Part shown: positions 7,487 through 8,182 of the stretch, piece after piece | Layout: each line of letters starts with the position of its first letter | Position numbering within the stretch: position 1 is the first letter of the stretch | Assembly (NCBI RefSeq): GCF_003334335.1 | Contig: NZ_QOWQ01000068.1 | Source: Escherichia coli | GTDB lineage: Bacteria > Pseudomonadota > Gammaproteobacteria > Enterobacterales > Enterobacteriaceae | Length of the DNA: 8,688 bases | Strand: one strand, 5' to 3' | The notes under the pieces: generated by a model | The model's input: the letters and a program-made list of their open reading frames with translations, nothing else | The model's database searches: none | What the model was told of the DNA's origin: nothing | Program-made: the position numbers and the translations under genes

Positions 7487-7897
7487 TTAGCGTGGAAAGA
7501 TTTGTGTAGTGTTCTGAATGCTCTCAGTAAATAGTAATGAATTATCAAAGGTATAGTAATATCTTTTATGTTCATGGATATTTGTAACCCATCGGAAAAC
7601 TCCTGCTTTAGCAAGATTTTCCCTGTATTGCTGAAATGTGATTTCTCTTGATTTCAACCTATCATAGGACGTTTCTATAAGATGCGTGTTTCTTGAGAAT
7701 TTAACATTTACAACCTTTTTAAGTCCTTTTATTAACACGGTGTTATCGTTTTCTAACACGATGTGAATATTATCTGTGGCTAGATAGTAAATATAATGTG
7801 AGACGTTGTGACGTTTTAGTTCAGAATAAAACAATTCACAGTTTAAATCTTTTCGCACTTGATCGAATATTTCTTTAAAAATGGCAACCTGAGCCAT
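7487..7897 (-). CDS. ybcV: YbcV-like protein of unknown function (136 aa from the ATG at 7897)
   Basis: In-frame ATG at 7897 has a GGAAGG Shine-Dalgarno about 8 nt upstream and gives [13 protein letters not shown]..., 136 aa. The ORF-track start at 8020 is a GTG with no RBS; another in-frame ATG is at 7939. Confidence 0.7.
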
Positions 7898-8182
7898 TGG
7901 TAAAACCTTCCATGTGATACGAGGGCGCGTAGTTTGCATTATCGTTTTTATCGTTTCAATCTGGTCTGACCTCTTTGTGTTTTGTTGATGATTTATGTCA
8001 AATATTAGGAATGTTTTCACTTAATAGTATTGGTTGCGTAACAAAGTGCGGTCCTGCTGGCATTCTGGAGGGAAATACAACCGACAGATGTATGTAAGGC
8101 CAACGTGCTCAAATCTTCATACAGAAAGATTTGAAGTAATATTTTAACCGCTAGATGAAGAGCAAGCGCATGGAGCGACAAA

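Follow-up and report, generated by a model that had tools for sequence, protein, structure and literature searches.

The closest known counterpart of the gene examined here is ybcV of Escherichia coli K-12 (b0558; UniProt YBCV_ECOLI, 136 aa), which is located in the DLP12 prophage within the locus order bor-ybcV-ybcW-ylcI. Two paralogues of the same family, DUF1398, are found elsewhere in E. coli. One of them, ydfO of the Qin prophage, shares ~85% DNA identity with ybcV over the coding sequence (CDS), and its product is represented by the structure PDB 2HH8. The other, ycgX, lies next to bluR, near e14 and icd, and shows ~43% protein identity. In K-12, a PdhR site was recovered by SELEX in the spacer between ybcV and ybcW, and RT-qPCR on a pdhR mutant showed that the mRNA of ybcV was down 10.0-fold and that of ybcW 8.9-fold (PMC7660256).

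We analysed a stretch of 8688 bases, hereafter called the window, which comes from a DLP12-type lambdoid prophage in a wild E. coli and is 100% identical over its entire length to several complete genomes, for example that of strain A14. The RefSeq features in the A14 record are ybcN, ninE, ybcO, rusA, ylcG, quuD, an intact porin gene, essD, rrrD, rzpD, bor, ybcV, ybcW and the start of ylcI. The surroundings of ybcV are composed as follows:

6903-7196, minus strand: bor (RefSeq, identical record)
7405-7430, minus strand: terminator-like hairpin with a T-run (pattern match only), 57-82 nt downstream of the ybcV stop in the 290-bp gap between bor and ybcV
7487-7897, minus strand: ybcV CDS, 136 aa plus stop, DUF1398 family (Pfam, RefSeq, 2HH8, homologue starts)
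8183-8389, plus strand: ybcW, the divergent neighbour (ORF listing, RefSeq)
8554-8688, minus strand: ylcI, start of the gene (RefSeq, identical record)

The locus has the same gene order as in K-12 and is 98.8% identical to it in DNA over the region. The two share a run of four T (TTTT) in front of the gene, a 41-codon open frame upstream of it and the annotated start. They differ in the head codon of that frame (TTG in K-12, GTG in the window), in one substitution in the leader, and in the sole amino-acid difference within the CDS, where K-12 has I and the window has V (...FRW[V/I]TNIHEH...). The divergent spacer between ybcV and ybcW covers 7898-8182 (285 bp), in agreement with the first-pass annotation of this DNA.

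Two observations were made elsewhere in the window. The prophage porin gene (4031-5113, minus strand; annotated ompC, nmpC-like) appears intact; the porin copy in DLP12 of K-12 is interrupted by IS5. Nested in rzpD, in a different frame, is an ORF at 6630-6812 (plus strand) for a lipoprotein-like peptide rich in proline (...PPPPP...), the Rz1/rzoD o-spanin; the sequence-identical RefSeq record does not annotate it.

Candidate translation starts of ybcV

At all loci inspected, whether of the ybcV, ydfO or intermediate type, the gene annotated by RefSeq is 411 nt long (136 aa), and the sequence-identical record places ybcV at 7487-7897. Exact-sequence look-up revealed three start calls for ybcV in public records:

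136 aa, ATG 7897: at least 1000 contigs each for the window and K-12 alleles, the K-12 allele being UniProt YBCV_ECOLI
150 aa, ATG 7939: 165 and 97 contigs (at least 262 for this form), with BAJ42382.1 (DH1) and AFG39630.1 (P12b, "putative envelope protein")
177 aa, GTG 8020: 1 contig

As a matter of annotation hygiene, the comparative evidence supports the 136-aa call only. This start is already known and agrees with the current curated annotation in RefSeq and UniProt.

The first-pass annotation had pointed out that the ybcV frame continues for 123 nt upstream of an RBS-supported ATG at 7897, through a second in-frame ATG at 7939, to a GTG at 8020, and had offered two explanations: a longer gene in this strain or a 5' UTR. 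The anatomy is confirmed by the ORF listing. The minus-strand ORF at 7487-8020 encodes 177 aa, begins with GTG 8020 and has the end of its stop codon at 7487, and the putative extension from GTG 8020 to ATG 7897 comprises 41 codons. The sites that bear on the choice of start are:

8018-8023, minus strand: in-frame stop TAA (8023-8021) directly before GTG 8020, with which the 177-codon ORF begins; no Shine-Dalgarno (SD) sequence
7937-7939, minus strand: in-frame ATG that gives the 150-aa call; no SD, adjoins the −10-like hexamer described below
7911-7913, minus strand: ATG, out of frame in the window; in frame in alleles with TTT, 5 codons upstream of the start
7906-7911, minus strand: SD sequence GGAAGG, 8 nt upstream of ATG 7897 (anti-SD duplex)
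7902-7905, minus strand: T-run TTTT, which is TTT in ~90%-identical homologues (locus alignments)

Among the candidate starts scored, ATG 7897 is the only one with an SD. The duplex energy of GGAAGG (7911-7906) with the anti-SD is −6.2 kcal/mol, while the 20 nt before GTG 8020 and ATG 7939 gave +1.9 and +0.3 kcal/mol, respectively. The motif is kept across the ybcV and ydfO lineages, and it would position the ribosome at ATG 7897.

In published retapamulin data, in which peaks were assigned within 12–18 nt from the start codon, the start annotated for ybcV in K-12 (579594, minus strand) shows a peak in five of five in vitro replicates, at 19–26 CPM (PMC9825163 Table S2). The synthetic mRNAs used in vitro carried only 30 nt of leader, a length that places the upstream codons at 7939 and 8020 outside the reach of the assay; in these constructs, ATG 7897 together with its SD can support initiation. 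In vivo, the retapamulin peak of ybcV was 0, which indicates that the gene is silent under standard culture conditions. The same dataset has peaks for ydfO at the equivalent ATG in vitro and in vivo (23.6), and an in vivo retapamulin (Ribo-RET) peak at the start of ybcW (PMC9825163 Table S2). YbcV protein was not detected under standard conditions, and ybcV is absent from the N-terminomics supplements that we searched. Over-expression of T4 MotB in BL21(DE3) is reported to induce ybcV more than 1000-fold (PMC7827196).

The Pfam domain DUF1398 (PF07166) matches residues 49–167 of the 177-aa ORF over the full model (1–119 of 119; E = 4.1e-46). In the 136-aa protein this corresponds to residues 8–126, so that the model begins 7 residues after Met 7897 and the extension falls outside the domain. 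The conserved N-terminus of the family, M-[AED]-x, lies about 7 residues ahead of DUF1398, which fits ATG 7897. All seven clean homologues of 30–45% identity (P0145, P0158, P0190, P0202, P0203, P0205 and P0216) begin at a Met aligned with this codon, and with the 177-aa ORF as query the alignment to the YdfO structure 2HH8 (E = 1.1e-71) covers query residues 40–177 only.

The 2HH8 chain begins MEGLS-MDQ..., at an ATG 5 codons upstream that is equivalent to ATG 7913 of the window. That ATG 7913 is out of frame here, owing to an extra T, again points to ATG 7897 as the common start in the family. In ydfO the T-run is shorter, which brings the ATG at −15 into frame; an older annotation of 141 aa used that ATG, so the start of ydfO, too, is ambiguous in the older records. 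The conservation of ATG 7913-7911 in the ybcV and ydfO lineages might also be taken as a sign of a small upstream ORF in the leader, for instance one that starts at this codon, overlaps the ybcV start and controls ybcV translation. However, ATG 7913 has no SD, overlaps the SD of the main start and is absent in ycgX, and since TTT alleles have this ATG in the reading frame of the gene itself, a small ORF is not conserved. We regard translational control of this kind as extremely unlikely.

Protein searches with the 177-aa query also returned dozens of YbcV entries of 148–234 aa (P0001–P0019 and similar), which inflate the count of long forms. These long calls come from error-ridden, frameshift-rich ENA contigs of ~3.5 kb, probably error-rich long-read amplicons or plasmids, and were rejected as evidence for an extension.

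Mosaic origin and frame disruption of the upstream codons

BLAST of ynfO-ydfO loci against the window found homology only at 8688-8586, where the 5' part of ylcI/ynfO lies, and from 7976 downward (7976-7862). The upstream region is accordingly divided into two parts:

7977-8585, no strand assigned: 609-bp segment carrying ybcW (BLAST of ynfO-ydfO loci against the window)
7898-7976, minus strand: conserved non-coding leader shared by ybcV, ydfO and ycgX (BLAST breakpoint at 7976; alignment)

The 609 nt (8585-7977) stand in place of 50 nt in the ynfO-ydfO arrangement of Qin-type prophages. They separate ylcI from ybcV and provide ylcI with a new C-terminus, which reads ...TSEKRAYTSIKSDEE compared with ...ELLRKQVRPD in ynfO. 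This shows that ybcW was brought in by an insertion into a tandem of the ynfO-ydfO type, which split the ancestral ylcI/ynfO-ybcV/ydfO pair. The ydfO locus shares with the window the leader of ~79 nt, the SD and the start Met, but it lacks the ybcW insertion, and ynfO ends inside the conserved block with its TGA in frame with ydfO. The upstream ~20 nt of the leader in ydfO loci are the 3' end of ynfO (...KQVRPD*).

The breakpoint at 7976 makes the putative extension a chimera. Its first 15 codons (8020-7977, 44 nt) belong to the margin of the ybcW segment, and the remaining 79 nt (7976-7898) are the leader.

The first-pass annotation had considered a gene that is longer in this strain. The open frame is not strain-specific; it is common to K-12 and all DLP12-type alleles examined. 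It was present in 55 of 55 DLP12-type loci with TTTT, headed by GTG in 20 and by TTG in 35, and among the 80 viral-contig relatives compared, alleles at least 99% identical to the window retain it. A stop-free stretch of at least 41 upstream codons arose by chance in 7.9% of mononucleotide shuffles of the spacer and in 11.8% of first-order Markov simulations, and is statistically unremarkable.

Beyond this group the frame is disrupted. Homologues ~90% identical to the window (24 viral-contig loci and L003) have TTT before the ATG and read ggaaggTTTacca-ATG; with one T fewer, the upstream frame shifts by 1 base and a TGA comes into frame 19 codons upstream. Alleles of ydfO carry indels of +1 or −1 nt in a C-run of the leader, with 10–19 open codons upstream. 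In ycgX, a single allele (L087) is open for 48 codons in the same register as the DLP12-type frame, and other alleles have a TAA 6 codons upstream of the start. A 182-aa ycgX call (P0133) was rejected as a conserved extension because of these stops and because its leader is conserved as DNA in the same register. In distant DUF1398 homologues (MELQLML..., MEFDEML..., MEFNEML..., MEQADIF...), in-frame stops occur 0–10 codons upstream of the Met, and in the viral-contig homologues overall 0–19 codons upstream. The frame of the window is open because of chance and one extra T at 7905-7902 in DLP12-type alleles; this T places the ancestral ynfO stop, TGA (7958-7956), out of frame.

The pattern of substitution differs between the two parts of the ORF. 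Across the 55 open-frame loci, the extension has six polymorphic sites, all of them non-synonymous and none at codon position 3, compared with 15 synonymous and 12 non-synonymous sites in the 411-nt CDS (Fisher p = 0.021). None of the three marks of an N-terminal extension that we looked for, namely preservation of the upstream frame, coding-type substitution and a ribosome-binding site at an upstream start, was found. Judged by these sequence comparisons, the 41-codon extension is non-coding. We conclude that ybcV is very probably translated from ATG 7897 into a 136-aa DUF1398 protein, and that the 123 nt upstream are non-coding, made of two pieces, and open by chance and through the T-run.

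The longer-gene explanation is thus contradicted by 1-nt indels, in-frame stops and the lack of a synonymous bias upstream. Homologues start at the Met equivalent to 7897 and drift in a non-coding manner above it, which is the pattern that the first-pass annotation had itself named as decisive against a longer gene. Its other explanation, a 5' UTR, holds in the sense of non-coding upstream DNA, part of which may be promoter and not transcribed UTR.

A variant of the longer gene needs to be weighed separately, in which the extra T created an extended YbcV of 150 aa (ATG 7939) or 177 aa (GTG/TTG 8020) that DLP12-type strains make instead of, or beside, the 136-aa protein. The frame that is open in all 55 TTTT loci and one ycgX allele speaks for it, as do the deposited records of the 150-aa form (262 contigs or more) and of the 177-aa form (one contig) and the frequent choice of ATG 7939 by gene callers on noisy contigs. 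Neither upstream start has an SD, however, the added residues lie outside DUF1398, and the polymorphism, with no synonymous against six non-synonymous changes, is of a non-coding type. ATG 7939 is not conserved as ATG, being ttg or gtg in L004, ydfO and ycgX; where TTT-type and ydfO alleles have a start-like codon at the equivalent position it is out of frame, and in L087 of ycgX it is in frame but GTG. The frame is broken in close homologues, and the region contains a published PdhR site and a promoter-like element with a predicted transcription start site (TSS) downstream of both codons (see below). An extended YbcV is therefore very improbable.

The most specific form of this proposal assumes a longer, read-through transcript, on which the A-rich and probably unstructured stretch before ATG 7939 could permit weak SD-independent initiation, adding a 14-residue N-terminal tail in DLP12-type strains. 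We consider this highly unlikely. If true, the T-run would act as a TTT/TTTT toggle of the upstream frame, and YbcV, whose function is unknown, would have a proteoform particular to this lineage.

The conserved leader, the PdhR box and a candidate promoter

The 79-nt leader travels with the DUF1398 gene in all E. coli paralogues (ybcV, ydfO and ycgX). Identity between the window and ycgX is 64% over positions −80 to −1 and 58% in the CDS, and it drops to 40%, the random level, further upstream. Two blocks of the leader are invariant, GACCAGATTG (7966-7957) and TGCAnACTACG (7938-7928). Both are found in ycgX at the same spacing (in L087 the leader lies at 620-698; also L136), while the SD region of ycgX differs. 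Two regulatory features are located in this leader:

7959-7975, plus strand: PdhR box ATCTGGTCTGACCTCTT as published (PMC7660256), matched exactly and only once in the window, within the stretch of the putative extension
7931-7959, minus strand: promoter-like element composed of TTGAAA (7959-7954), a 17-nt spacer and CAAACT (7936-7931) (sigma-70-like score; conserved pattern)

The K-12 PdhR 17-mer, AtcTGGTctgACCtcTT, is unchanged at 7959-7975. With the box present in the window and the binding and expression data taken from the K-12 study, ybcV can be classed as a probable PdhR target.

The first-pass annotation had also proposed that the spacer likely carries the promoters of both genes. The regulatory side of this proposal is supported indirectly by the PdhR SELEX site and the ~10-fold drops in mRNA (PMC7660256). 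The promoters themselves were not recovered by a consensus promoter scan, which found no site on either strand in 7898-8182, and 4 hits over 7200-8688 compared with 4.9 expected from shuffles.

TTGAAA-17-CAAACT has the best sigma-70-like score on the ybcV strand, 9.3 with our own scoring matrix; shuffles average 9.1, so the score is not above chance. The pattern TTGnnn-17-CAnACT occurs in five lineages (ybcV, ydfO, L086, ycgX and MEQADIF) with constant spacing and at a variable distance from the ATG (−61 to −76). It was found by chance in a fraction of 0.003 (0.3%) of shuffled 200-nt leaders, a figure to be read with the homology of the five lineages in mind, as they are not independent. Some ~90%-type alleles have CTAACT for CAAACT and have lost the critical A2 of the −10 element.

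We infer that TTGAAA-17-CAAACT is a candidate ybcV promoter, with a predicted TSS at ~7924-7928. Transcripts made from this element would begin close to 7926, past both of the upstream start candidates. The PdhR box would then be centred at about −41 from the predicted TSS, and PdhR would act there as an activator. Together, the box and the conserved −35/−10-like pair provide testable coordinates for the ybcV promoter region. As regards published promoter data, the ybcV locus does not appear in the supplements searched from Cappable-seq and in vitro run-off transcription, the ybcV construct was dropped in a copper-stress promoter-library paper, and an ionic-liquid paper with the ydfO promoter does not give start-site coordinates.

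The 123 nt could instead be a long untranslated 5' leader, transcribed from a promoter further upstream in the spacer or by read-through from ylcI, with the conserved block acting as RNA. In the ancestral arrangement ynfO ends 57 nt before ydfO on the same strand, which makes co-transcription likely there, and a perfect TTGACA is present at 8001-7996. This hexamer was rejected as a −35 element, however, having no usable −10. Folding of the leader gave no significant RNA structure (z = 0.14 and 0.16 for the short and long leader, respectively), and Rfam had no match over 7200-8688 at E up to 1. The constant 17-nt spacing of the blocks, combined with their variable distance to the ATG, suits a promoter better than an RNA element. 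We therefore think a long untranslated leader unlikely, and favour a promoter within the conserved block.

The 79-nt leader may be a PdhR-responsive promoter that forms a mobile cassette, passing from prophage to prophage together with DUF1398 genes, a proposal that is more likely, if milder in its consequences, than a proteoform with the 14-residue tail. Neither the promoter coordinates nor the ybcW insertion alters the understanding of such prophage genes.

One viral contig with a ~90%-type ybcV (L063) has lost ~100 nt, among them the PdhR box and the promoter-like element. The deletion joins 'ttgttacgcaa' to 'actacgcg' and keeps the SD and the ATG; it leaves a different upstream frame that is open for 56 codons by chance.
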